Positions 6,259 to 57,634 of a stretch of DNA of 64,000 bases are shown here, piece by piece. The first letter of the stretch is position 1; every line of letters begins with the position of its first letter. The DNA comes from Escherichia coli (GTDB taxonomy: Bacteria; Pseudomonadota; Gammaproteobacteria; Enterobacterales; Enterobacteriaceae): NCBI RefSeq assembly GCF_044324785.1, contig NZ_CP172127.1. The stretch is one strand, 5' to 3'. A program made the position numbers and the translations under genes. The notes under the pieces are model-generated. The model was not told where the DNA came from. It ran no database searches and was given only the letters and a program-made list of their open reading frames with translations.

Positions 6259-6397
6259 AACATGAGGAAATACCTGGATTTTTCCTGGTTATTTTGCCGC
6301 AGGTCAGCGTATCGTGAACATCTTTTCCAGTGTTCAGTATGGTGCCTTGCACGGTAATTATGTCACTGGTTATTAACCAATTTTTCCTGGGGGATAA

Positions 6398-7537
6398 ATG
6401 AGCGCGGGAAGCCCAAAATTCACCGTTCGCCGCATTGCGGCTTTGTCACTGGTTTCGCTATGGCTGGCAGGCTGTTCTGACACTTCAAATCCACCGGCAC
6501 CGGTCAGCTCCGTTAATGGCAATGCGCCTGCAAATACCAATTCTGGTATGTTGATTACGCCGCCGCCGAAAATGGGGACGACGTCTACAGCGCAGCAACC
6601 GCAAATTCAGCCGGTACAGCAGCCACAAATTCAGGCTACTCAACAACCGCAAATCCAGCCAGTACAGCCAGTAGCTCAGCAGCCGGTACAGATGGAAAAC
6701 GGACGCATCGTCTACAACCGTCAGTATGGGAACATTCCGAAAGGCAGTTATAGCGGCAGTACCTATACAGTGAAAAAAGGCGACACACTTTTCTATATCG
6801 CCTGGATTACTGGCAACGATTTCCGTGACCTTGCTCAGCGCAACAATATTCAGGCACCATACGCGCTGAACGTCGGTCAGACCTTACAGGTGGGTAATGC
6901 TTCCGGTACGCCAATCACTGGCGGAAATGCCATTACCCAGGCCGATGCAGCAGAGCAAGGAGTTGTGATCAAGCCTGCACAAAATTCCACCGTTGCTGTT
7001 GCGTCGCAACCGACAATTACGTATTCTGAGTCTTCGGGTGAACAGAGTGCTAACAAAATGTTGCCGAACAACAAGCCAACTGCGACCACGGTCACAGCGC
7101 CTGTAACGGTACCAACAGCAAGCACAACCGAGCCGACTGTCAGCAGTACATCAACCAGTACGCCTATCTCTACCTGGCGCTGGCCGACTGAGGGTAAAGT
7201 GATCGAAACCTTTGGCGCTTCTGAGGGGGGCAACAAGGGGATTGATATCGCAGGCAGCAAAGGACAGGCAATTATCGCGACCGCAGATGGCCGCGTTGTT
7301 TATGCCGGTAACGCGCTGCGCGGCTACGGTAATCTGATTATCATCAAACATAATGATGATTACCTGAGTGCCTACGCCCATAACGACACAATGCTGGTCC
7401 GGGAACAACAAGAAGTGAAGGCGGGGCAAAAAATAGCAACCATGGGTAGCACCGGAACCAGTTCAACACGCTTGCATTTTGAAATTCGTTACAAGGGGAA
7501 ATCCGTAAACCCGCTGCGTTATTTGCCGCAGCGATAA
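6398..7537 (+). CDS. nlpD: Lipoprotein NlpD (LysM + M23 peptidase-like, amidase activator)
   Basis: 379 aa; lipobox LAGC, Q/P-rich repeat linker, LysM and C-terminal M23 domain; contains rpoS promoters by established knowledge. Confidence 0.93.
6594..6693 (+). repeat. Imperfect in-frame tandem repeats encoding QQPQIQP(V) units inside nlpD
   Basis: Repeated cagc(a/c)gccacaaattcag-like units read directly; protein shows [25 protein letters not shown]. Confidence 0.5.
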
Positions 7538-7599
7538 ATCGGCGGAACCAGGCTTTTGCTTGAATGTTCCGTCAAGGGATCACGGGTAGGAGCCACCTT

Positions 7600-8592
7600 A
7601 TGAGTCAGAATACGCTGAAAGTTCATGATTTAAATGAAGATGCGGAATTTGATGAGAACGGAGTTGAGGTTTTTGACGAAAAGGCCTTAGTAGAAGAGGA
7701 ACCCAGTGATAACGATTTGGCCGAAGAGGAACTGTTATCGCAGGGAGCCACACAGCGTGTGTTGGACGCGACTCAGCTTTACCTTGGTGAGATTGGTTAT
7801 TCACCACTGTTAACGGCCGAAGAAGAAGTTTATTTTGCGCGTCGCGCACTGCGTGGAGATGTTGCCTCCCGCCGCCGGATGATCGAGAGTAACTTGCGTC
7901 TGGTGGTAAAAATTGCCCGCCGTTATGGCAATCGTGGTCTGGCGTTGCTGGACCTTATCGAAGAGGGCAACCTGGGGCTGATCCGCGCGGTTGAGAAGTT
8001 TGACCCGGAACGTGGTTTCCGCTTCTCAACATACGCAACCTGGTGGATTCGCCAGACGATCGAACGGGCGATTATGAACCAAACCCGTACTATTCGTTTG
8101 CCTATTCACATCGTAAAGGAGCTGAACGTTTACCTGCGAACCGCACGCGAGTTGTCCCATAAACTGGACCACGAACCAAGTGCGGAAGAGATCGCAGAGC
8201 AACTGGATAAGCCAGTTGATGACGTCAGCCGTATGCTTCGTCTTAACGAGCGCATTACCTCGGTAGACACCCCGCTAGGTGGTGATTCCGAAAAAGCGTT
8301 GCTGGACATCCTGGCCGATGAAAAAGAGAACGGTCCGGAAGATACCACGCAAGATGACGATATGAAGCAGAGCATCGTCAAATGGCTGTTCGAGCTGAAC
8401 GCCAAACAGCGTGAAGTACTGGCACGTCGATTCGGTTTGCTGGGGTACGAAGCGGCAACACTGGAAGATGTAGGTCGTGAAATTGGCCTCACCCGTGAAC
8501 GTGTTCGCCAGATTCAGGTTGAAGGCCTGCGCCGTTTGCGCGAAATCCTGCAAACGCAGGGGCTGAATATCGAAGCGCTGTTCCGCGAGTAA
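7600..8592 (+). CDS. rpoS: RNA polymerase sigma factor RpoS (sigma-38), full length
   Basis: ORF 7564..8592; start set at ATG 7600 ([11 protein letters not shown]...), 330 aa; codon 33 is GAG (Glu), no internal stop. Confidence 0.95.
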
Positions 8593-8607
8593 GTAAGCAT
8601 CTGTCAG

Positions 8608-8645
8608 AAAGGCCAGTCTCAAGCGAGGCTGGCCTTTTTCTTTTG
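8608..8645 (+). terminator. Rho-independent terminator downstream of rpoS
   Basis: GC-rich hairpin ggccagtctcaagcgaggctggcc followed by ttttt ctttt. Confidence 0.6.
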
Positions 8646-8712
8646 GTTGGGGAGTTGGTGTGTTTTGTCGCCTGGATAAGACACGTCAGTGTCCCACCCG
8701 GCAATCAGCATC

Positions 8713-9120
8713 CTATTTGCTCATCATCTTGCGCACCAGTTGCATAAACAGCTCTTGCTCTTCTCCACTCAAACGCCCCAAAAATTCCTCATCCACACTG
8801 TCACCAATCGGTATCGCCGCAGCAAGTACCTTTTCTCCTTCGGCAGTCAGCCAGACAAAGCGACGCCGCTTGTCAGCGGCGTCATGTTCACGTCTGACTA
8901 AGCCACGATTTTCCATTCTTGCCAACATTTCTGCCAGCGTTGCTTTGGTGCTGACGGCTGCTTCCATCAGTGCCACCTGTTCGATACCAGGTTTATCAGC
9001 AATGGCGCGCATCACCGCGTACTGTGGTTTGGTCAGATCAGGTAACTCGTGCTGCCAGCGAGCCGTATGCTGCTGAAAAAGCTGTCGTAACTGATGGAAC
9101 GCTTTATTTCGTAACGCCAT
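8713..9120 (-). CDS. MarR/SlyA-family transcriptional regulator
   Basis: 135 aa winged-helix MarR-like sequence; divergent from the decarboxylase cluster. Confidence 0.8.
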   Translation of the reverse strand: MALRNKAFHQLRQLFQQHTARWQHELPDLTKPQYAVMRAIADKPGIEQVALMEAAVSTKATLAEMLARMENRGLVRREHDAADKRRRFVWLTAEGEKVLAAAIPIGDSVDEEFLGRLSGEEQELFMQLVRKMMSK

Positions 9121-9234
9121 GTAAACTCCGGGCTAATTCTCTGTCGCTATCATAGCGGTTTTTCAGTGACGAAGAAGATGTTGTTACTTTTCAATCCTTG
9201 CCGCTGTGGAAATGAAGGAGTATGTTAATAATAA

Positions 9235-9250
9235 TGTTCGTATACGAACA
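9235..9250. promoter_or_regulatory. Perfect 16-bp palindrome TGTTCGTATACGAACA, candidate operator in divergent promoter region
   Basis: Read directly; lies 17 bp upstream of the UbiX-like start, between divergent MarR gene and decarboxylase operon; MarR regulators bind palindromes. Confidence 0.4.
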
Positions 9251-9266
9251 ATTAAGAGAGTAAGCA

Positions 9267-9860
9267 ATGAAACTGATCGTCGGGATGACAGGGGCTACCG
9301 GTGCGCCTCTTGGTGTGGCATTACTGCAAGCGCTGCGGGAGATGCCGAATGTCGAGACTCATCTGGTGATGTCGAAGTGGGCGAAAACCACTATTGAACT
9401 GGAAACGCCTTACAGCGCTCGCGATGTTGCCGCCCTCGCAGACTTCAGCCATAACCCGGCGGATCAGGCGGCGACTATCTCTTCCGGCTCCTTTCGTACC
9501 GACGGCATGATCGTTATTCCATGCAGTATGAAAACGCTCGCCGGTATCCGCGCTGGTTACGCCGATGGTCTCGTAGGGCGCGCGGCGGACGTCGTGCTCA
9601 AAGAAGGCCGCAAACTGGTGCTGGTGCCGCGTGAAATGCCGCTTAGCACCATCCATCTCGAAAATATGCTCGCACTTTCGCGCATGGGCGTGGCGATGGT
9701 GCCGCCGATGCCTGCCTTTTATAACCATCCCGAAACGGTAGATGACATTGTCCACCATGTGGTAGCCCGCGTGCTGGATCAATTTGGCCTCGAACATCCT
9801 CACGCCAGGCGCTGGCAAGGGTTGCCGCAGGCCCGGAATTTTTCTCAGGAGAATGAATAA
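9267..9860 (+). CDS. UbiX/Pad1-family flavin prenyltransferase (decarboxylase B subunit)
   Basis: 197 aa, MKLIVGMTGATGA flavoprotein signature; first gene of three-gene cluster. Confidence 0.85.
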   Translation: MKLIVGMTGATGAPLGVALLQALREMPNVETHLVMSKWAKTTIELETPYSARDVAALADFSHNPADQAATISSGSFRTDGMIVIPCSMKTLAGIRAGYADGLVGRAADVVLKEGRKLVLVPREMPLSTIHLENMLALSRMGVAMVPPMPAFYNHPETVDDIVHHVVARVLDQFGLEHPHARRWQGLPQARNFSQENE

Positions 9861-11287
9861 TGGCATTTGATGATTTACGCAGCTTTTTACAGGCGCTTGA
9901 TGACCACGGCCAGTTACTGAAAATCAGCGAAGAGGTGAACGCGGAACCGGATCTGGCAGCCGCTGCCAATGCCACCGGGCGTATCGGCGATGGTGCACCG
10001 GCTCTGTGGTTTGACAATATTCGCGGCTTTACCGATGCCCGCGTGGCGATGAATACCATCGGTTCCTGGCAGAACCACGCGATTTCCCTCGGCCTGCCGC
10101 CAAACACCCCGGTTAAAAAACAGATTGATGAGTTTATCCGCCGCTGGGATAACTTCCCCATTACCCCGGAGCGCCGCGCCAATCCAGCCTGGGCGCAGAA
10201 CACCGTCGATGGCGACGAGATCAACCTGTTCGATATTCTGCCACTGTTTCGTTTAAACGACGGTGATGGCGGTTTCTATCTCGACAAAGCCTGCGTAGTT
10301 TCCCGCGATCCGCTCGACCCGGATAACTTCGGCAAGCAGAACGTCGGCATCTACCGCATGGAAGTGAAGGGCAAGCGTAAGCTCGGCCTGCAACCGGTGC
10401 CGATGCACGATATCGCCCTGCATCTGCATAAAGCAGAAGAGCGCGGTGAAGATCTGCCGATTGCCATCACCCTGGGTAACGATCCGATCATCACCCTGAT
10501 GGGGGCCACGCCGCTGAAATACGATCAGTCTGAGTACGAAATGGCGGGCGCGCTGCGCGAAAGCCCGTACCCGATCGCCACCGCCCCGCTGACCAGTTTT
10601 GATGTGCCGTGGGGCTCGGAAGTGATCCTCGAAGGGGTTATCGAAAGTCGTAAACGTGAGATTGAAGGGCCGTTCGGTGAGTTTACCGGCCACTACTCCG
10701 GCGGGCGTAACATGACCGTGGTGCGTATCGATAAAGTCTCTTACCGTACCAAACCGATTTTCGAATCGCTCTATCTTGGTATGCCGTGGACCGAAATCGA
10801 CTACCTGATGGGGCCTGCCACCTGCGTGCCGCTGTATCAACAACTGAAAGCCGAGTTCCCGGAAGTGCAGGCGGTAAACGCCATGTACACCCACGGCCTG
10901 TTGGCGATTATCTCCACCAAAAAACGCTACGGTGGCTTTGCCCGCGCGGTGGGCCTGCGTGCGATGACCACGCCGCACGGTCTGGGCTACGTGAAGATGG
11001 TGATTATGGTCGATGAAGACGTTGATCCGTTCAACCTGCCGCAGGTGATGTGGGCGCTCTCTTCGAAAGTGAACCCGGCAGGGGATTTAGTGCAGTTGCC
11101 GAATATGTCCGTGCTGGAACTCGACCCCGGCTCAAGCCCGGCCGGTATCACCGACAAGCTGATTATCGACGCTACCACGCCTGTCGCCCCGGACAACCGT
11201 GGTCACTACAGCCAGCCGGTGGTGGATTTACCGGAAACCAAAGCCTGGGCTGAAAAACTGACCGCTATGCTGGCCGCACGTCAATAA
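9860..11287 (+). CDS. UbiD-family reversible (hydroxy)aryl-acid decarboxylase, catalytic C subunit
   Basis: 475 aa UbiD-like; start overlaps UbiX-like stop (TAATG). Confidence 0.85.
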   Translation: MAFDDLRSFLQALDDHGQLLKISEEVNAEPDLAAAANATGRIGDGAPALWFDNIRGFTDARVAMNTIGSWQNHAISLGLPPNTPVKKQIDEFIRRWDNFPITPERRANPAWAQNTVDGDEINLFDILPLFRLNDGDGGFYLDKACVVSRDPLDPDNFGKQNVGIYRMEVKGKRKLGLQPVPMHDIALHLHKAEERGEDLPIAITLGNDPIITLMGATPLKYDQSEYEMAGALRESPYPIATAPLTSFDVPWGSEVILEGVIESRKREIEGPFGEFTGHYSGGRNMTVVRIDKVSYRTKPIFESLYLGMPWTEIDYLMGPATCVPLYQQLKAEFPEVQAVNAMYTHGLLAIISTKKRYGGFARAVGLRAMTTPHGLGYVKMVIMVDEDVDPFNLPQVMWALSSKVNPAGDLVQLPNMSVLELDPGSSPAGITDKLIIDATTPVAPDNRGHYSQPVVDLPETKAWAEKLTAMLAARQ

Positions 11288-11297
11288 GGAGAACAAG

Positions 11298-11534
11298 ATG
11301 ATTTGTCCACGTTGTGCCGATGAACAGATTGAAGTGATGGCGAAATCGCCGGTAAAAGATGTCTGGACGGTCTACCAGTGCCAGCATTGCCTCTATACCT
11401 GGCGCGATACCGAACCGCTGCGCCGCACCAGCCGCGAACATTATCCCGAAGCGTTCCGCATGACGCAGAAAGATATTGATGACGCGCCGATGGTGCCGAG
11501 CATCCCGCCGCTGCTGGCGGTAGATAAGCGTTAA
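11298..11534 (+). CDS. Small zinc-ribbon D subunit of the decarboxylase
   Basis: 78 aa with CPRC...CQHC motif; 10 bp downstream of the UbiD-like gene. Confidence 0.7.
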   Translation: MICPRCADEQIEVMAKSPVKDVWTVYQCQHCLYTWRDTEPLRRTSREHYPEAFRMTQKDIDDAPMVPSIPPLLAVDKR

Positions 11535-11542
11535 TAAAAAGT

Positions 11543-11570
11543 GCCGGGTAGTGGCTTTGCTTTACCCGGC
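11543..11570. terminator. Hairpin between convergent decarboxylase operon and pphB (likely bidirectional terminator)
   Basis: gccgggta-N12-tacccggc inverted repeat flanked by A/T runs. Confidence 0.5.
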
Positions 11571-11574
11571 CTAA

Positions 11575-12237
11575 TTACTTTATTTTATAAAATGACAGCC
11601 GCCCGCTTTTCGGCGATCCGGTATCAATATAAATCTGGTTAGCGAACGTCTGAATGTTATCAAACATCATATGTCCAAATATAAAATAATCAGCGCCGTT
11701 TATTTGTTGTAACTCGCCATTAAGCGATTTCTGCACACGATCAACAGGCCAGAGTAATTCTCTCTCCGCTATTTCTTTGCCAAAGAGATATTCATTCCCC
11801 GGATAATCTGCATGTGCGATGACATATTTTATTATGTCGTTAGTGATTTCAATAATATGTGGAAGGTGATGAAATCTCAGCAACAGATCTATTGCTTCTT
11901 GTTGTTCCGTCTCATTTAATTCAAAGAACCAGTCGCCGCCGCTGGCAAGCCACATATTGCCATCGCCGGTCGCGAACGCATCCAACGCCATCGCTTCATG
12001 GTTGCCTTTAACCGATGTAAACCAGGGCTGGTTTAGCAGGCGCAGCACGTTAAGACTCTCCGGCCCACGATCAATATTATCGCCGACAGAAATAAGTAAG
12101 TCGGTTTCAGGGCAAAAAGAGAGTTGATGTAAGCGAGATTGTAATAATTTATAGTCACCATGAATATCACCAACGGCCCATATATGGCGATAGTGATGGG
12201 CATCAATTATTTGATAGCGAGTGGTAGACATTTGCAT
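11575..12237 (-). CDS. pphB: Serine/threonine protein phosphatase 2
   Basis: 220 aa metallophosphatase with GDIHGD and GNHE motifs; AT-rich codon usage. Confidence 0.88.
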   Translation of the reverse strand: MQMSTTRYQIIDAHHYRHIWAVGDIHGDYKLLQSRLHQLSFCPETDLLISVGDNIDRGPESLNVLRLLNQPWFTSVKGNHEAMALDAFATGDGNMWLASGGDWFFELNETEQQEAIDLLLRFHHLPHIIEITNDIIKYVIAHADYPGNEYLFGKEIAERELLWPVDRVQKSLNGELQQINGADYFIFGHMMFDNIQTFANQIYIDTGSPKSGRLSFYKIK

Positions 12238-12323
12238 AGACTCAAATTTATATGAATGTATTATTATATCAGACCAGGGTATTGAAGTCTCTGGAGTAAT
12301 AAATTACAAAAGGATGTTTTAAA

Positions 12324-12857
12324 ATGCTGAGATATTTCTATGCTTTCCTGTTAGTTTTTTGTTTTTTCACCTCTAATGTACACGCTGCATCTATAGAAGA
12401 AATAAATCGTTTCGAAAAACTTATAACCGAAGGTGATGTAATTGAGTGTACAGCGCATTTCAGTCAGACGGAGAATAACGAAACATACCAACTTAACCTT
12501 TTGGGAATAATGAAAGTTACTTACTCTGGGGAAAGTGAAAAACGCTACCACTCGACACAATATTATCGTTTAGACGGCTTCAAAATTCCCTTTATCCGTT
12601 ATGAGATGGATATCATCGCTACTCATGAAAAATCGAAGTTAAAAGAAGAGATTGTGCCTGACAGCGTACAGGTATTTTATCCTTCAGCACCAGAGCAAGA
12701 AGCGATATTAGCAGAAGCTGTACGGAAAACCGCACCAATGTCTATTGATAATGACGATATCACATTTACGACATTTCCTGATTACCAGGTGAAAGTGAAA
12801 TCCCCCTCTATGCCAGAAGCGATGACTCAGTATTGCCAGGTGCAAACGAAAAAGTAG
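12324..12857 (+). CDS. Hypothetical secreted protein (predicted signal peptide, unknown function)
   Basis: 177 aa; N-terminal hydrophobic segment ending VHA-AS; AAGGA RBS 9 bp upstream; AT-rich; no domain recognised. Confidence 0.6.
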   Translation: MLRYFYAFLLVFCFFTSNVHAASIEEINRFEKLITEGDVIECTAHFSQTENNETYQLNLLGIMKVTYSGESEKRYHSTQYYRLDGFKIPFIRYEMDIIATHEKSKLKEEIVPDSVQVFYPSAPEQEAILAEAVRKTAPMSIDNDDITFTTFPDYQVKVKSPSMPEAMTQYCQVQTKK

Positions 12858-12866
12858 TGAATAAAC

Positions 12867-12889
12867 CCGACGGCATTGTGCCGTCGGGC
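12867..12889. terminator. Hairpin between convergent hypothetical ORF and mutS
   Basis: cccgacggca-ttg-tgccgtcggg perfect inverted repeat. Confidence 0.5.
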
Positions 12890-12898
12890 ATGTCAGGT

Positions 12899-15460
12899 TT
12901 ACACCAGACTCTTCAAGCGATAAATCCATTCCAGCGCCTGACGCGGGGTGAGTGAATCCGGGTCCAGGTTTTCCAGTGCCTCGACCGCAGGCGACGTTTC
13001 TTCTGGCACTGACAGCAAAGACATTTGCGTACCATCCACTTGCGTAGCGGCGGCGTTCGGCGAAATGCTTTCCAGCTCACGCAGTTTTTGCCGTGCGCGC
13101 TTAATAACCTCTTTTGGCACGCCCGCCAGAGCTGCAACCGCCAGGCCGTAGCTTTTGCTCGCCGCGCCATCCTGCACGCTGTGCATAAAGGCAATGGTGT
13201 CGCCGTGCTCCAGTGCATCGAGATGCACGTTGGCGACGCCTTCCATTTTCTCCGGTAACTGGGTCAGCTCGAAATAGTGGGTGGCAAACAGCGTCAACGC
13301 TTTAATCTTATTCGCCAGATTTTCCGCGCACGCCCACGCCAGCGACAGACCATCGTAAGTGGAGGTTCCGCGCCCAATCTCATCCATCAGCACCAGACTG
13401 TACTCGGTGGCGTTATGCAGAATATTGGCGGTTTCGGTCATCTCCACCATAAAGGTTGAACGCCCGGATGCCAGATCATCCGCTGCCCCTACGCGGGTAA
13501 AGATGCGATCGATAGGTCCAATCTCGACTTTTTGTGCCGGTACATAGCTGCCGATGTAGGCCATCAGCGCAATCAGTGCGGTCTGGCGCATATAGGTACT
13601 TTTACCGCCCATATTCGGACCGGTAATGATCAACATGCGACGCTGCGGCGACAGGTTCAGCGGGTTGGCGATAAATGGCTCGTTTAGTACCTGTTCAACC
13701 ACCGGATGGCGGCCTTCGGTGATGCGAATACCCGGTTTATCAATGAAGGTCGGGCAGGTGTAGTTCAGGGTATAGGCCCGTTCCGCCAGGTTAACCAGCA
13801 CATCAAGTTCCGCCAGCGCGCTCGCGCTCTGTTGCAACGCTTCCAGATGCGGCAACAGCAGGTCGAACAGCTCTTCATAAAGTTGTTTTTCCAGTGCCAG
13901 TGCTTTGCCTTTTGAGGTGAGAACTTTATCTTCGTACTCTTTTAGCTCTGGAATGATGTAGCGCTCGGCGTTTTTCAGCGTCTGGCGACGCATGTAGTTG
14001 ATGGGTGCCAGATGGCTTTGTCCACGGCTGATCTGAATGTAATAACCATGAACCGCGTTAAAGCCGACTTTCAGCGTGTCCAGGCCAGTACGTTCACGCT
14101 CGCGGACTTCCAGACGCTCCAGATAATCGGTCGCGCCATCAGCCAGCGCGCGCCACTCATCCAGCTCTTCGTTATAGCCCGGTGCGATAACACCACCGTC
14201 GCGTACCAGCACTGGCGGTGTGTCGATGATTGCTCGCTCCAGCAGATCGCGCAGCTCGGCAAACTCGCCCATTTTTTCACGCAGCGCCTGTACCGGAGCG
14301 CTATCGACATTTTCTAATAGCGCACGCAGCTCCGGCAGTTGCTGGAAAGCGTGACGCATACGGGCCAGATCGCGTGGGCGAGCAGTTCGTAAAGCCAGAC
14401 GCGCCAGAATACGTTCCAGGTCGCCGACCTGACGCAGTACCGGCTGCAGCTCGGCGGTGAAATCCTGCAATGCGCCAATAGTTTGCTGGCGCTCAAGCAA
14501 CACGCGGGTATCGCGCACTGGCATATGCAGCCAGCGTTTCAGCATACGGCTGCCCATCGGCGTGACGGTGCAGTCGAGCACAGAAGCCAGCGTATTTTCC
14601 GCACCACCCGCCAGATTCTGGGTGATTTCCAGATTACGACGCGTCGCGGCATCCATAATGATGCTGTCCTGCTCACGTTCCATAGTGATAGAACGAATAT
14701 GCGGCAGAGTCGTACGTTGGGTATCTTTCGCATACTGCAACAGACAACCGGCAGCACAAAGTCCGCGCGGCGCGTTCTCGACGCCAAAACCGACCAGATC
14801 GCGGGTCCCAAATTGCAGATTCAACTGCTGGCGCGCGGTGTCGATTTCAAACTCCCACAGCGGGCGACGGCGCAGGCCGCGACGGCCTTCAATTAACGAC
14901 ATTTCAGCAAAATCTTCTGCATATAGCAGTTCCGCCGGATTAGTGCGTTGCAGTTCTGCCGCCATCGTTTCCCGGTCAGCCGGTTCGCTCAGGCGAAAAC
15001 GACCGGAACTGATATCCAGCGTCGCGTAGCCGAAACCTTTACTGTCCTGCCAGATAGCCGCCAGCAGATTGTCCTGGCGCTCTTGTAACAGGGCTTCATC
15101 GCTGATGGTGCCTGGCGTAACGATACGCACAACTTTGCGCTCAACTGGACCTTTGCTGGTCGCCGGATCGCCAATTTGTTCGCAGATGGCAACGGACTCG
15201 CCCTGATTCACCAGTTTGGCGAGGTAGTTTTCCACCGCATGGTAGGGGATCCCCGCCATCGGGATCGGCTCTCCCGCGGAAGCACCGCGTTTGGTCAGTG
15301 AAATATCCAGCAGCTGCGACGCGCGTTTTGCGTCGTCATAAAACAGTTCATAAAAATCACCCATCCGGTAAAACAGCAGGATCTCGGGATGCTGGGCTTT
15401 CAGCTTGAGATACTGCTGCATCATTGGCGTATGGGCATCGAAATTTTCTATTGCACTCAT
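12899..15460 (-). CDS. mutS: DNA mismatch repair protein MutS
   Basis: 853 aa; Walker [10 protein letters not shown]; full-length match to MutS. Confidence 0.97.
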
Positions 15461-15718
15461 GGGGTTATGTCCGGTTCCCTGATATTAAATGGGGTGTGAT
15501 GGTTTTTATTTTCGTTGTAATCACATAAGGCGCACATGATACCGGAGTTAATCATTTCAGGGGAAGAAGCGAACGGCGAGTTCTTGATGGTGATTCCGGG
15601 AAAGATGCTGTTTTGCAGCTTTTGCGTGATGCTTATGAAGCAAGTACGCAAAATTGTATCAGTTGGCGAACCCTTCTTCTTTAGAGTCATAGTGCCCTTT
15701 AAGATTAAGTTGTAATAT

Positions 15719-15729
15719 AAATGCATCTT
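15719..15729. promoter_or_regulatory. Candidate NsrR half-site (AAATGCATCTT) upstream of ygbA
   Basis: Exact match to one 11-bp half of the NsrR consensus, 17 bp upstream of ygbA ATG; partner half is degenerate. Confidence 0.35.
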
Positions 15730-15746
15730 AATGAGGTGGAGGCAGC

Positions 15747-16091
15747 ATGTCCGGCAAGCGTATCTCTCGTGAAAAACTGACGATTAAAAAAATGATCGAT
15801 CTTTATCAAGCGAAATGCCCGCAGGCGTCAGCGGAGCCGTCGCATTACGACGCGCTGTTTGCCTACGCGCAAAAGCGGCTGGATAAATGTGTGTTCGGCG
15901 AAGAGAAACCAGCCTGTAAGCAGTGTCCGGTGCACTGTTACCAGCCTGCAAAGCGTGAAGAGATGAAACAGATTATGCGTTGGGCCGGGCCGAGAATGCT
16001 GTGGCGTCATCCGATCTTAACCGTGCGTCATCTCATCGATGACAAGCGTCCGGTGCCGGAGTTGCCAGAAAAATATCGTCCAAAGAAATAA
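15747..16091 (+). CDS. ygbA: YgbA, Cys-rich nitrosative-stress-induced protein
   Basis: 114 aa with CPQ...CKQCPVHC cysteine motif; divergent from mutS. Confidence 0.8.
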   Translation: MSGKRISREKLTIKKMIDLYQAKCPQASAEPSHYDALFAYAQKRLDKCVFGEEKPACKQCPVHCYQPAKREEMKQIMRWAGPRMLWRHPILTVRHLIDDKRPVPELPEKYRPKK

Positions 16092-16129
16092 ATCTGCCGG
16101 AGAGCCATACTCTCCGGCAAATAAGGCGT

Positions 16130-16558
16130 TTACGCTTTGGTGGCAATCAGGATGGCTGATGCTTTGATCAATGCAATAACGCGTGAGCCAGTGGTGAGTT
16201 TCATTTCATCCTGACTTTCATTTGTTACCACTGCCACAATTTCAAAACCCGCATCCGTTTTGATATGGACAGTGGCGTTCACTGCGCCTTCGGTGATTGT
16301 CGACACGCTGCCAGCAAACTGGTTGCGAGCAGAGAATTTCAGTCCACAGTCTTCCGTTGCCAGCGTTACCCACGGGGCTTTAATCAGGGCAATCGCTTCT
16401 TTCCCTTTCGCCAGACCCAGCGCTTGCTGGCTGCTGTGAGTCACAATTGCCACCAGCTTTGCACCACCTGCCAGCGTCAGTTCTACTTCATCATTCACAG
16501 CGCCCATTGCTACTGCGCTAACTGTTCCGGTTAATTGATTTCTTGCTGAAACTGCCAT
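16130..16558 (-). CDS. Molbindin: tandem TOBE (Mop) domain molybdate/tungstate-binding protein
   Basis: ORF 16130..16597; start set at ATG 16558 with AAGGAGG RBS; two SARNQ(L/F)-type TOBE repeats; 45 bp downstream of fhlA on same strand. Confidence 0.75.
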   Translation of the reverse strand: MAVSARNQLTGTVSAVAMGAVNDEVELTLAGGAKLVAIVTHSSQQALGLAKGKEAIALIKAPWVTLATEDCGLKFSARNQFAGSVSTITEGAVNATVHIKTDAGFEIVAVVTNESQDEMKLTTGSRVIALIKASAILIATKA

Positions 16559-16602
16559 ACTGCCTCCTTTCATTGAATGTTGATCGAGTATAACCACATC
16601 TG

Positions 16603-18681
16603 TTAAATCAATGCCGATTTATCAATTCCCAGTCGCTTCATCCGTGACAGCAGAGTCGTGCGTTTCAGCCCCAGACGTTGCGCAGCGCCTTTAGGCCCGG
16701 CAACCACGCCGTTAGTTTCTTTCAGCACGCGAACAATCAACTGATATTCATCTTCGCCCTCCTGAGCGACAACCGTTGCGGCAGGCGGCGTTTCTGGTTC
16801 CGGTAAAACAATATCTGGCAATGACAGCTGCAGCACGTTGCCGCGTGTCAGCAATACCGCGCGCTCAATGACGTTTTCCAGTTCGCGCACGTTACCCGGC
16901 CACTCCATGTTGCTCAAGGTGCGCAACGTCTCGGCAGGAATGCTGTCGATATTGCGCCCCAGACGACGGGCAATTTTGAAGGTAAAGGATTTCGCCAGCA
17001 GCGGAATATCTTCCGGACGCTCGCGCAGGGGCGGCAGGTGGATCGGGAATACGTTCAGGCGGTAATAGAGATCGCTACGGAACTCGCGATCGGCGACCAT
17101 TTTTTTCAGATCGCGGTTAGTCGCGGCAATTAAACGCACGTCCGTCTGAATGATTTTGTTGCTGCCGAGACGTTCAAACTCTTGTTCCTGCAATACACGC
17201 AGCAACTTCGGCTGTAACTCCAGTGGCATATCACCCACTTCGTCGAGGAACAGGGAGCTTTTATCCGCCAGTTCAAAACGACCAATGCGCTGGGCGCTGG
17301 CACCGGTAAAAGCCCCACGCTCATGACCAAACAGATCGCTCTCCAGCAATCCGGCAGGCATCGCCGCGCAGTTCATTTTTACCATGCGGCGATTATTACG
17401 CCCACTGAGATTATGGATCGCGCGGGCAATCAGCTCTTTACCTGTACCAGTTTCACCGAGAATCAGCACGGTACTGTCACTTTGCGCCACCATTTCAACT
17501 TGTTTAAGTACGCTGTACATGGCTTCGCTGCGGCCAATAATCTCGCCAAATTCACTATCAACATTGTTGAGCTGCTCGGTCAGGGCGAGGTTTTCATCAA
17601 CCAGCCGTTCTTTCAGACGATGAATTTCCTGATAGGCGAGGGCGTTATCGACAGCGATTGCCACACGTTCGGCAATCTGGCGCAGTAAATTCAGATTGGT
17701 AGTGGTAAAGACTTTCTCTTCGCATTGCGCCAGTTTCAGTACGCCCAGCATGGTGTCGCCAGACATCAGCGGTAACAGGCACAAGGTTTGAATCTGGTTG
17801 CCCCAGGTGTTGAACAACATGCGTTCATAGGGGGCTAAATCGTCCCGCTCGTGGAGATTAATCAACAGCATCTCTTTACTTTTGAAGACGCGTTCGGTGA
17901 GGGTTCCGGCTTCATCGACTTCGCTCTGTTCGTGAGCGGGATGCTGTTTATCAAGATAGTGAGTGGAGTAGATGTTGAGTTTGTTTTTACGGTGGCTGCG
18001 TAAGACGATGCTGATATCGTCAATGTCGAAGTAGTAGTGGATTTCTTTGGCGACTTCGCTGACCAGTTCGTCCATATCCAGGCGGGAAAGCACCGCGTTG
18101 GTAATGGCAACCAGGATGCGGAAGTTATCGCGCTCCCGGCATAACAACTCATAGTCGACATTGTTGACGACGCGGCTCTGGATTTGTTCGGTGACGACAG
18201 AAACGATCTGCGTAAATGTTTGCAGACGATTGAACTCTTTTTCGCTCCAGGGGCGATCGTCATAACGAATAAATTCACAGCCACCAAAAATATGCCCTTC
18301 CGCCGCCAGTGGCATCAGGCAATAGTGACCAAATTTGGGGTATAGCCCACCTGCGGCCAGCTGCGGCCAGGTTTCACAAAATTCTTCGTAACTGCAATGC
18401 AGCGTATCAGGGCGCGACAAAATGCTGCGTACCGGACCGTGTGCCAGAACAGTTTCGTCTTCATATTTAATGGGGGTGTCTTTTTCACGCGATGCGTAAT
18501 AAGACGCACGTTGAGTCTGCGCTTGCCACAACACAATAGCCGCGTTGTCGGCGAGCGCAGAACGCTTTACCAGTTGCGAAAGAGCCTCACACAGCGAGGC
18601 CAGATCGGGCTGCTGCAATAGTGTCCGAGTGATGTCGAACAACCCTTGTTGTCCGAGATCACTCATCGGTGTATATGACAT
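16603..18681 (-). CDS. fhlA: Formate hydrogenlyase transcriptional activator (sigma-54 dependent)
   Basis: ORF 16603..18717; start set at MSYTPMSDLG (692 aa); GAF domains, AAA+ [15 protein letters not shown]-terminal HTH. Confidence 0.95.
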   Translation of the reverse strand: MSYTPMSDLGQQGLFDITRTLLQQPDLASLCEALSQLVKRSALADNAAIVLWQAQTQRASYYASREKDTPIKYEDETVLAHGPVRSILSRPDTLHCSYEEFCETWPQLAAGGLYPKFGHYCLMPLAAEGHIFGGCEFIRYDDRPWSEKEFNRLQTFTQIVSVVTEQIQSRVVNNVDYELLCRERDNFRILVAITNAVLSRLDMDELVSEVAKEIHYYFDIDDISIVLRSHRKNKLNIYSTHYLDKQHPAHEQSEVDEAGTLTERVFKSKEMLLINLHERDDLAPYERMLFNTWGNQIQTLCLLPLMSGDTMLGVLKLAQCEEKVFTTTNLNLLRQIAERVAIAVDNALAYQEIHRLKERLVDENLALTEQLNNVDSEFGEIIGRSEAMYSVLKQVEMVAQSDSTVLILGETGTGKELIARAIHNLSGRNNRRMVKMNCAAMPAGLLESDLFGHERGAFTGASAQRIGRFELADKSSLFLDEVGDMPLELQPKLLRVLQEQEFERLGSNKIIQTDVRLIAATNRDLKKMVADREFRSDLYYRLNVFPIHLPPLRERPEDIPLLAKSFTFKIARRLGRNIDSIPAETLRTLSNMEWPGNVRELENVIERAVLLTRGNVLQLSLPDIVLPEPETPPAATVVAQEGEDEYQLIVRVLKETNGVVAGPKGAAQRLGLKRTTLLSRMKRLGIDKSALI

Positions 18682-54339: not shown

Positions 54340-54432
54340 GGTGAGGTGGCCGAGAGGCTGAAGGCGCTCCCCTGCTAAGGGAGTATGCGGTCAAAAGCTG
54401 CATCCGGGGTTCGAATCCCCGCCTCACCGCCA
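54340..54432 (+). tRNA. serV: tRNA-Ser (anticodon GCT)
   Basis: 93-nt cloverleaf with long variable arm, anticodon loop ctGCTaa, CCA end. Confidence 0.93.
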
Positions 54433-54435
54433 TTT

Positions 54436-54512
54436 GCATCCGTAGCTCAGCTGGATAGAGTACTCGGCTACGAACCGAGCGGTCGGAGGTTCGAATCCTC
54501 CCGGATGCACCA
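54436..54512 (+). tRNA. tRNA-Arg (anticodon ACG)
   Basis: 77 nt gcatccgtagctcagctggatagagtactcggctACGaaccgagcggtcggaggttcgaatcctcccggatgcacca; 3 bp after serV. Confidence 0.93.
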
Positions 54513-54575
54513 TCTCTTACTTGATATGGCTTTAGTGGCGGTATCAATATCAGCAGTAAAATAAATTTTCCCGAT

Positions 54576-54652
54576 GCATCCGTAGCTCAGCTGGATAGAG
54601 TACTCGGCTACGAACCGAGCGGTCGGAGGTTCGAATCCTCCCGGATGCACCA
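54576..54652 (+). tRNA. tRNA-Arg (anticodon ACG), second identical copy
   Basis: Identical 77-nt sequence, 63-bp spacer after first copy. Confidence 0.93.
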
Positions 54653-57561: not shown

Positions 57562-57634
57562 AAAAAGGCCACTCGTGAGTGGCCAAAATTTCATCTCTGA
57601 ATTCAGGGATGATGATAACAAATGCGCGTCTTTC
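57562..57634 (-). ncRNA. micA: MicA (SraD) small regulatory RNA
   Basis: Reverse complement gives GAAAGACGCGCATTTGTTATCATCATCCCTGAATTCAGAGATGAAATTTTGGCCACTCACGAGTGGCCTTTTT; between gshA and luxS on the opposite strand. Confidence 0.85.

Follow-up and report, generated by a model that had tools for sequence, protein, structure and literature searches.

The 64,000-nucleotide stretch of Escherichia coli DNA analysed here (the window) carries the genes surE, pcm, nlpD and rpoS in the same order as in MG1655, the canonical enterobacterial context. Downstream of rpoS lie an intrinsic terminator and a set of genes that extends to mutS (Table 1). An ATG at 7600-7602 and a TAA at 8590-8592 delimit an rpoS frame of 993 nt, which has the length and register of MG1655 b2741 (993 nt) and aligns with it base for base from position 7600. 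A further in-frame ATG is found at 7564, 36 nt 5' of this start, and yields a mechanical ORF of 342 aa. Since the K-12 annotation begins at 7600 and the AGGAG ribosome-binding site is positioned 7 nt 5' of that codon, as it is in K-12, we assigned the start to 7600 rather than to 7564. Three minus-strand ORFs within the gene (7598-7849, 8130-8492 and 8275-8622) were taken as chance frames in a conserved gene. Rfam returned no match in or near rpoS; its hits in the window, MicA and three tRNAs, lie elsewhere.

The encoded protein matched the NCBIfam RpoS equivalog NF004207 over residues 1-329 with 604.6 bits (cut-off 394) and the equivalog TIGR02394 with 480.7 bits (cut-off 378.7), and it fell below the models' own cut-offs when compared with RpoD and RpoH. 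Pfam recovered sigma-70 regions 1.2, 2, 3 and 4, all of them intact. The protein is RpoS, a group 2 member of the sigma-70 family, with a match far beyond chance. A first-pass annotation of this DNA had described a full-length rpoS of 330 codons with GAG at codon 33, and both readings were accurate: the frame is unbroken from start to stop and its product passes the RpoS equivalog models, and the coordinates and identity of the codon are exact. Residue 33 (...KALVE-E33-EPSD...) is located in an acidic N-terminal segment that precedes region 1.2, which starts at residue 56.

Full-length sigma-S in solved holoenzymes (PDB 5IPL, 6KJ6 and 6OMF) is identical to the window protein at 329 of the 330 residues. 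This was the count for chain 5ipl_F, and a residue-by-residue alignment with chain 6kj6_F placed the sole difference at residue 33, which is Gln in the K-12 chain and Glu in the window. The exact window protein is present on at least 1000 public contigs under the name MULTISPECIES RpoS (Enterobacteriaceae). It is identical to the 330-aa WP_000081550.1 annotated in the sampled natural isolates N3, CFSAN018748 and Ec-FL1-1X, which share the nlpD-rpoS context and terminator of the window and differ from it in the synonymous haplotype alone; for strain N3 these rpoS differences are at 7992, 8061 and 8277. The best complete genome reaches only 99.8% identity to the window in rpoS, so the exact synonymous haplotype is uncommon. 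Over 6,408 bp around rpoS, the window nevertheless matches a public draft assembly (GCA_013355125.1) at 100% identity.

Table 1. Features of the nlpD-rpoS-mutS part of the window and domains of its RpoS protein.
Feature	Position	Strand	Basis or remark
nlpD (LysM/M23 lipoprotein)	6398..7537	+	conserved upstream neighbour, 379 aa, intact
rpoS 5' leader, inferred, inside nlpD	7033..7599	+	placed by the reported 567-nt K-12 distance
AGGAG ribosome-binding site (Shine-Dalgarno)	7588-7592	+	7 nt 5' of ATG; identical in K-12
rpoS CDS, sigma-S (sigma-38)	7600..8592	+	330 codons + TAA, read from sequence
rpoS codon 33, GAG (Glu)	7696-7698	+	MG1655 CAG, W3110 TAG; read directly
Sigma-70 region 1.2 (Pfam PF00140)	RpoS residues 56-88		
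Sigma-70 region 2 (Pfam PF04542)	RpoS residues 94-163		
Sigma-70 region 3 (Pfam PF04539)	RpoS residues 174-248		
Sigma-70 region 4 (Pfam PF04545)	RpoS residues 262-315		
rpoS intrinsic terminator hairpin	8606..8639	+	15-pair stem, then T run
MarR-family (slyA/kpdR-like) regulator	8713..9120	-	first non-K-12 gene 3' of rpoS; PMC4209514 primer F6 site
Non-oxidative hydroxyarylic acid decarboxylase subunits B, C, D	9267..11534	+	N3 annotation (99.5% identical) and Pfam
pphB (Ser/Thr phosphatase 2)	11575..12231	-	annotation and Pfam
Orphan ORF, 177 aa	12324-12857	+	within pphB-mutS spacer (12238-12898)
mutS	12899..15460	-	far border of polymorphic rpoS-mutS region
TOBE-domain gene	16130-16597	-	in the ygbA-fhlA interval, also in CFT073 and E2348/69

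Codon 33 of rpoS among E. coli genomes

Codon 33 begins with G in the window, with C in MG1655, and with T in both W3110 and EMG2. A 59-mer centred on this base was prepared in GAG, CAG and TAG versions and searched for in 5,426 complete genomes of E. coli. The GAG version had 4,825 exact matches, with 5,414 genomes giving a match in this census; the CAG and TAG versions had 173 and 121 exact matches, respectively. Among the matches listed, GAG was carried by CFT073, O157:H7, 55989 and other natural isolates, CAG by MG1655, BW25113, DH10B, MC4100, BW2952 and derivatives, and TAG by W3110, EMG2, WG1, J53, NCM3722, HMS174, S17-1 and BLR(DE3). The CAG and TAG genomes so listed were nearly all K-12 laboratory derivatives or carriers of K-12 DNA, and the first four CAG and first five TAG genomes named here bear out the first-pass statement that K-12 lineages have amber or Gln at this codon. 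The 90-95% identity band of the census held 162 further genomes, from which we sampled Ec-FL1-1X; this isolate has GAG, four synonymous changes in the flanks of the codon, and the protein WP_000081550.1. GAG is thus found in at least 89% of complete genomes, or in approximately 92% if Ec-FL1-1X is typical of the 162-genome band. Glu33 is the default of the species and the K-12 reference alleles are the exceptions; GAG by itself says only that an allele is not that of MG1655 or W3110.

Among the TAG genomes, BLR(DE3) (NZ_CP020368.1) is an E. coli B derivative that has the K-12 amber 59-mer at rpoS codon 33. The presence of K-12 DNA near recA in this B strain is known, and its TAG codon likely arrived when K-12 DNA was co-transduced together with recA/srl, which lies nearby. 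Genotype listings of BLR(DE3) should count rpoS(Am).

To look for K-12 genomes with GAG, we queried the 3.2-kb K-12 nlpD-rpoS-ygbN haplotype with only C97G changed. This query, which cannot pick out K-12 revertants, returned 60 listed matches, every one a natural isolate at 100% identity; 57 were uninterrupted and 3 were split by an IS insertion. The uninterrupted matches, at least 57 in number, had human, pig, cattle and poultry sources. Since the edited K-12 haplotype is 100% identical to many natural isolates, GAG is likely to be the ancestral state in E. coli. The comparison indicates that the CAG and TAG of K-12 are derived, single-base changes of laboratory lineages at the first base of codon 33, and that the K-12 rpoS alleles descend by such a change from a natural, phylogroup-A-like haplotype.

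Variation at this codon has been reported repeatedly. Dong et al. 2009 (PMC2700278) described amber in some K-12 strains and Glu, Tyr or Gln in others, found GAG to be common in natural non-K-12 isolates, and found it in all of the VTEC strains tested. Coldewey et al. 2007 (PMC1852560) recorded 33E in all of their EHEC and probiotic isolates, and Lyons et al. 2011 (PMC3045373) linked the amber allele of many K-12 strains with an amber suppressor. Ferenci et al. 2011 (PMC3074542) listed C97G/Q33E in most ECOR strains and called it common. K-12 stocks with GAG or TAT at codon 33 have also been reported (PMC2700278, PMC3074542). The first-pass annotation had treated GAG as discriminating so long as K-12 reference alleles do not share it; the reference genomes indeed lack GAG, but since some K-12 stocks are reported to carry GAG or TAT, this codon does not by itself discriminate strictly. 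The Glu/Gln/amber polymorphism, like the mosaic structure of the rpoS-mutS region, has been described since about 2000, and neither is new.

Were Glu33 to make a functionally distinct sigma-S relative to Gln33, the polymorphism would be relevant to physiology. A passage in PMC1852560 that rests on a 2002 source speaks for such a difference, whereas a passage in PMC3074542 citing that same source credits Q33E with similar functional activity. As residue 33 also lies N-terminal to all of the conserved sigma regions, and most of the species carries Glu33, we consider a distinct Glu33 variant very improbable.

Flanking sequence and the rpoS-mutS region

Comparison of rpoS with MG1655 (b2741) revealed 11 nucleotide differences, of which ten are synonymous third-position changes and only C97G (Q33E) alters the protein, leaving RpoS identical at 329 of 330 residues. 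A further 13 differences were found in nlpD, and 25 substitutions relative to K-12 were counted over 6262-8418. Homology to K-12 stops at 8639, which is the 3' edge of the rpoS terminator; the gene immediately downstream is ygbN in K-12 and the MarR/slyA-like gene in the window. K-12 has ygbN-ygbI between rpoS and pphB, and the window is without them: in an in-silico PCR based on the typing scheme that Ewers et al. 2014 published (PMC4209514), primer sites for o454/ygbN, ygbK, ygbI and o347 were absent from the window. Of two characters that would mark a K-12 lineage, TAG or CAG at codon 33 (which is not a strict criterion) and the nlpD-rpoS haplotype with ygbN directly 3', the window has neither.

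We also compared 25 kb of the window with the complete genomes. Strain N3, at 99.5%, was the only one to reach 99% identity, and the other 5,425, K-12 included, fell in the 95-99% band with no value above 98.4%. The differences from N3 cluster at 17-21 kb, in the fhlA-hyp region, which suggests a recombination mosaic. Farther along the window, a plus-strand tRNA array at 54340-54652 consists of serV (Ser-GCU) followed by two tRNA-Arg(ACG) genes, in contrast to four (argV, argY, argZ and argQ) at the same locus of MG1655, a difference in tandem copy number. A MicA sRNA gene (Rfam RF00078, 83.9 bits) is present on the minus strand at 57563-57634, adjoined by a 518-aa ORF where K-12 has gshA next to micA.

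These comparisons bear on whether the GAG codon could belong to a K-12 stock in which an ancestral amber TAG had pseudo-reverted, in which case codon 33 would be uninformative. GAG or TAT is reported for some K-12 stocks (PMC2700278, PMC3074542). A pseudo-revertant would not, however, be expected to carry ten additional synonymous differences in rpoS and 13 in nlpD, to lose K-12 homology at 8639 with a MarR regulator and decarboxylase genes replacing ygbN-ygbI, to come from a region in which N3 alone reaches 99% over 25 kb, or to have two rather than four copies of tRNA-Arg(ACG). The flanking sequence refutes this reading, to which we assign a negligible chance. It is likewise the flanking sequence, rather than codon 33, that excludes K-12; the non-K-12 background proposed in the first-pass annotation from the codon was correct, and is established by the synonymous rpoS differences, the end of homology and the different downstream genes. 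We are close to certain that the window carries a wild-type rpoS from a natural E. coli lineage other than K-12.

The segment that replaces ygbN-ygbI is made up of the MarR-family regulator and the decarboxylase genes, which are kpdB/yclC/kpdD-like and encode a UbiX-like flavoprotein and a UbiD family protein. The absence of o454/ygbN and the presence of slyA-like and kpdBCD-like genes beside rpoS are shared with pattern I of PMC4209514, represented by O157:H7 EDL933 (EHEC 1). The gene content of the window is that of pattern I, but its predicted amplicons are not all of the EDL933 sizes. The slyA-nlpD product is 1,394 bp in the window versus 1,393 in EDL933, whereas the mutS-yclC product is 1,880 bp versus 1,318, owing to a pphB-mutS spacer that is 562 bp longer and contains an orphan ORF, and the fhlA-mutS product is 1,674 bp versus 1,208, the window having the TOBE-domain gene that CFT073 also carries. 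Since these last two sizes differ, the polymorphic region of the window, which runs from rpoS to fhlA (8593-17086), is a mosaic variant of pattern I and does not have the EDL933 structure.

Among the haplotypes in Table 1 of PMC3074542, that of ECOR50 shares C264T, T270C, T462C, T549C, G564A, T573C and G819A with the window rpoS, which adds A393T, G504T and G678A and is without T357G; C97G is not listed for ECOR50 in that table. The rpoS PCR fragment of ECOR50 belongs to the 4.2-kb class, consistent with extra genes beside rpoS. We suggest tentatively, and with less confidence than doubt, that the lineage carries an undescribed rpoS-mutS mosaic that combines the ygbN-negative state of O157:H7, the TOBE gene of the CFT073 type and the 562-bp longer spacer with its orphan ORF.

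The orphan ORF has a signal-peptide-like N-terminus (MLRYFYAFLLVFCFFTSNVHA/AS), falls in the 2-kb bin where the GC content of the window is lowest (0.48), and gave no match in Pfam. The spacer that contains it exceeds by 562 bp that of a comparison strain without the ORF, whose 105-bp spacer is of unrelated sequence. The spacer DNA segment was found in 2 of the 5,426 complete E. coli genomes, those of N3 and the goat strain R32_14_1F, and the protein in only 3 clusters among 5.8 billion proteins. Escherichia marmotae has a copy of the segment with 78% identity at the same pphB-mutS position. The AlphaFold2 model of the protein, built from a 4-sequence alignment, had a pLDDT of 39 and was unusable. 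It could represent an old Escherichia gene, present in the ancestor and since lost by almost every E. coli, or it could have entered by introgression at mutS, a locus prone to recombination.

Expression signals and function of sigma-S

The major rpoS promoter of K-12 is reported to lie about 567 nt 5' of the ATG, inside nlpD, and we used this distance to place the leader in the window. Between the start of nlpD and the ATG of rpoS there are 1,202 nt, the K-12 length, with no indels versus MG1655. Only five substitutions relative to K-12 fall in the leader (7171, 7195, 7306, 7417 and 7438), and the stretches 6947-7170 and 7439-7599 are identical to K-12. The latter is the last 161 nt of the leader, which we take to include the ribosome-binding site and the region of sRNA pairing. 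A consensus promoter scan found no sigma-70-like site 5' of rpoS, but it is too crude for this result to weigh against the known promoter within nlpD. None of the nlpD promoter region, the leader, the ribosome-binding site, the ORF and the terminator contained a disruptive change, and, as judged from its sequence, the window holds all of the cis elements known to be needed for rpoS. In strain N3, one G is missing at 7225 and nlpD is annotated as frameshifted; nlpD of the window is intact.

In the arrangement described here, nlpD would carry the rpoS promoter and a long leader, and the intrinsic terminator would close transcription after rpoS, ahead of the variable rpoS-mutS segment. The sigma-S produced would bind core RNA polymerase through regions 2-4, competing for core, and would steer the polymerase to promoters of the general stress regulon. 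The gene looks functional, because its protein is WP_000081550.1, found on at least 1000 contigs, and because the last 161 nt of its leader are those of K-12. Expression of the protein and a working general stress response, which the first-pass annotation had presumed, are plausible.

An intact rpoS does not guarantee a working stress response: in ECOR strains that share one RpoS sequence, the amount of the protein varies between very low and the highest found, and variation in ppGpp contributes to these differences (PMC3074542). The same study reported that 20-30% of natural isolates are rpoS-defective. Whether the response works in this strain is decided by genes elsewhere in the genome, among them rssB, spoT/ppGpp and crl, and by phenotype. 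The level or activity of sigma-S in this strain could therefore be attenuated or unusual, with the ORF intact, through RssB proteolysis, ppGpp/SpoT, Crl or the five distal leader substitutions at 7171-7438. The ECOR precedent and the substitutions themselves favour this possibility. Against it, the proximal 161 nt of the leader match K-12, and the substitutions are located inside the nlpD coding sequence and resemble ordinary lineage polymorphism. We regard attenuation as unlikely, and prefer the reading of an ordinary, functional rpoS.

The Glu33 rpoS of the window is an ordinary wild-type allele that has already been described, and it matters little beyond serving as a sanity check. Its source is a natural non-K-12 E. 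coli with an undamaged rpoS, and nothing in the sequence points to an rpoS-null phenotype. E33 is the norm of the species, and it is the K-12 reference alleles, including the sigma-S of chain 6kj6_F, that are exceptional.
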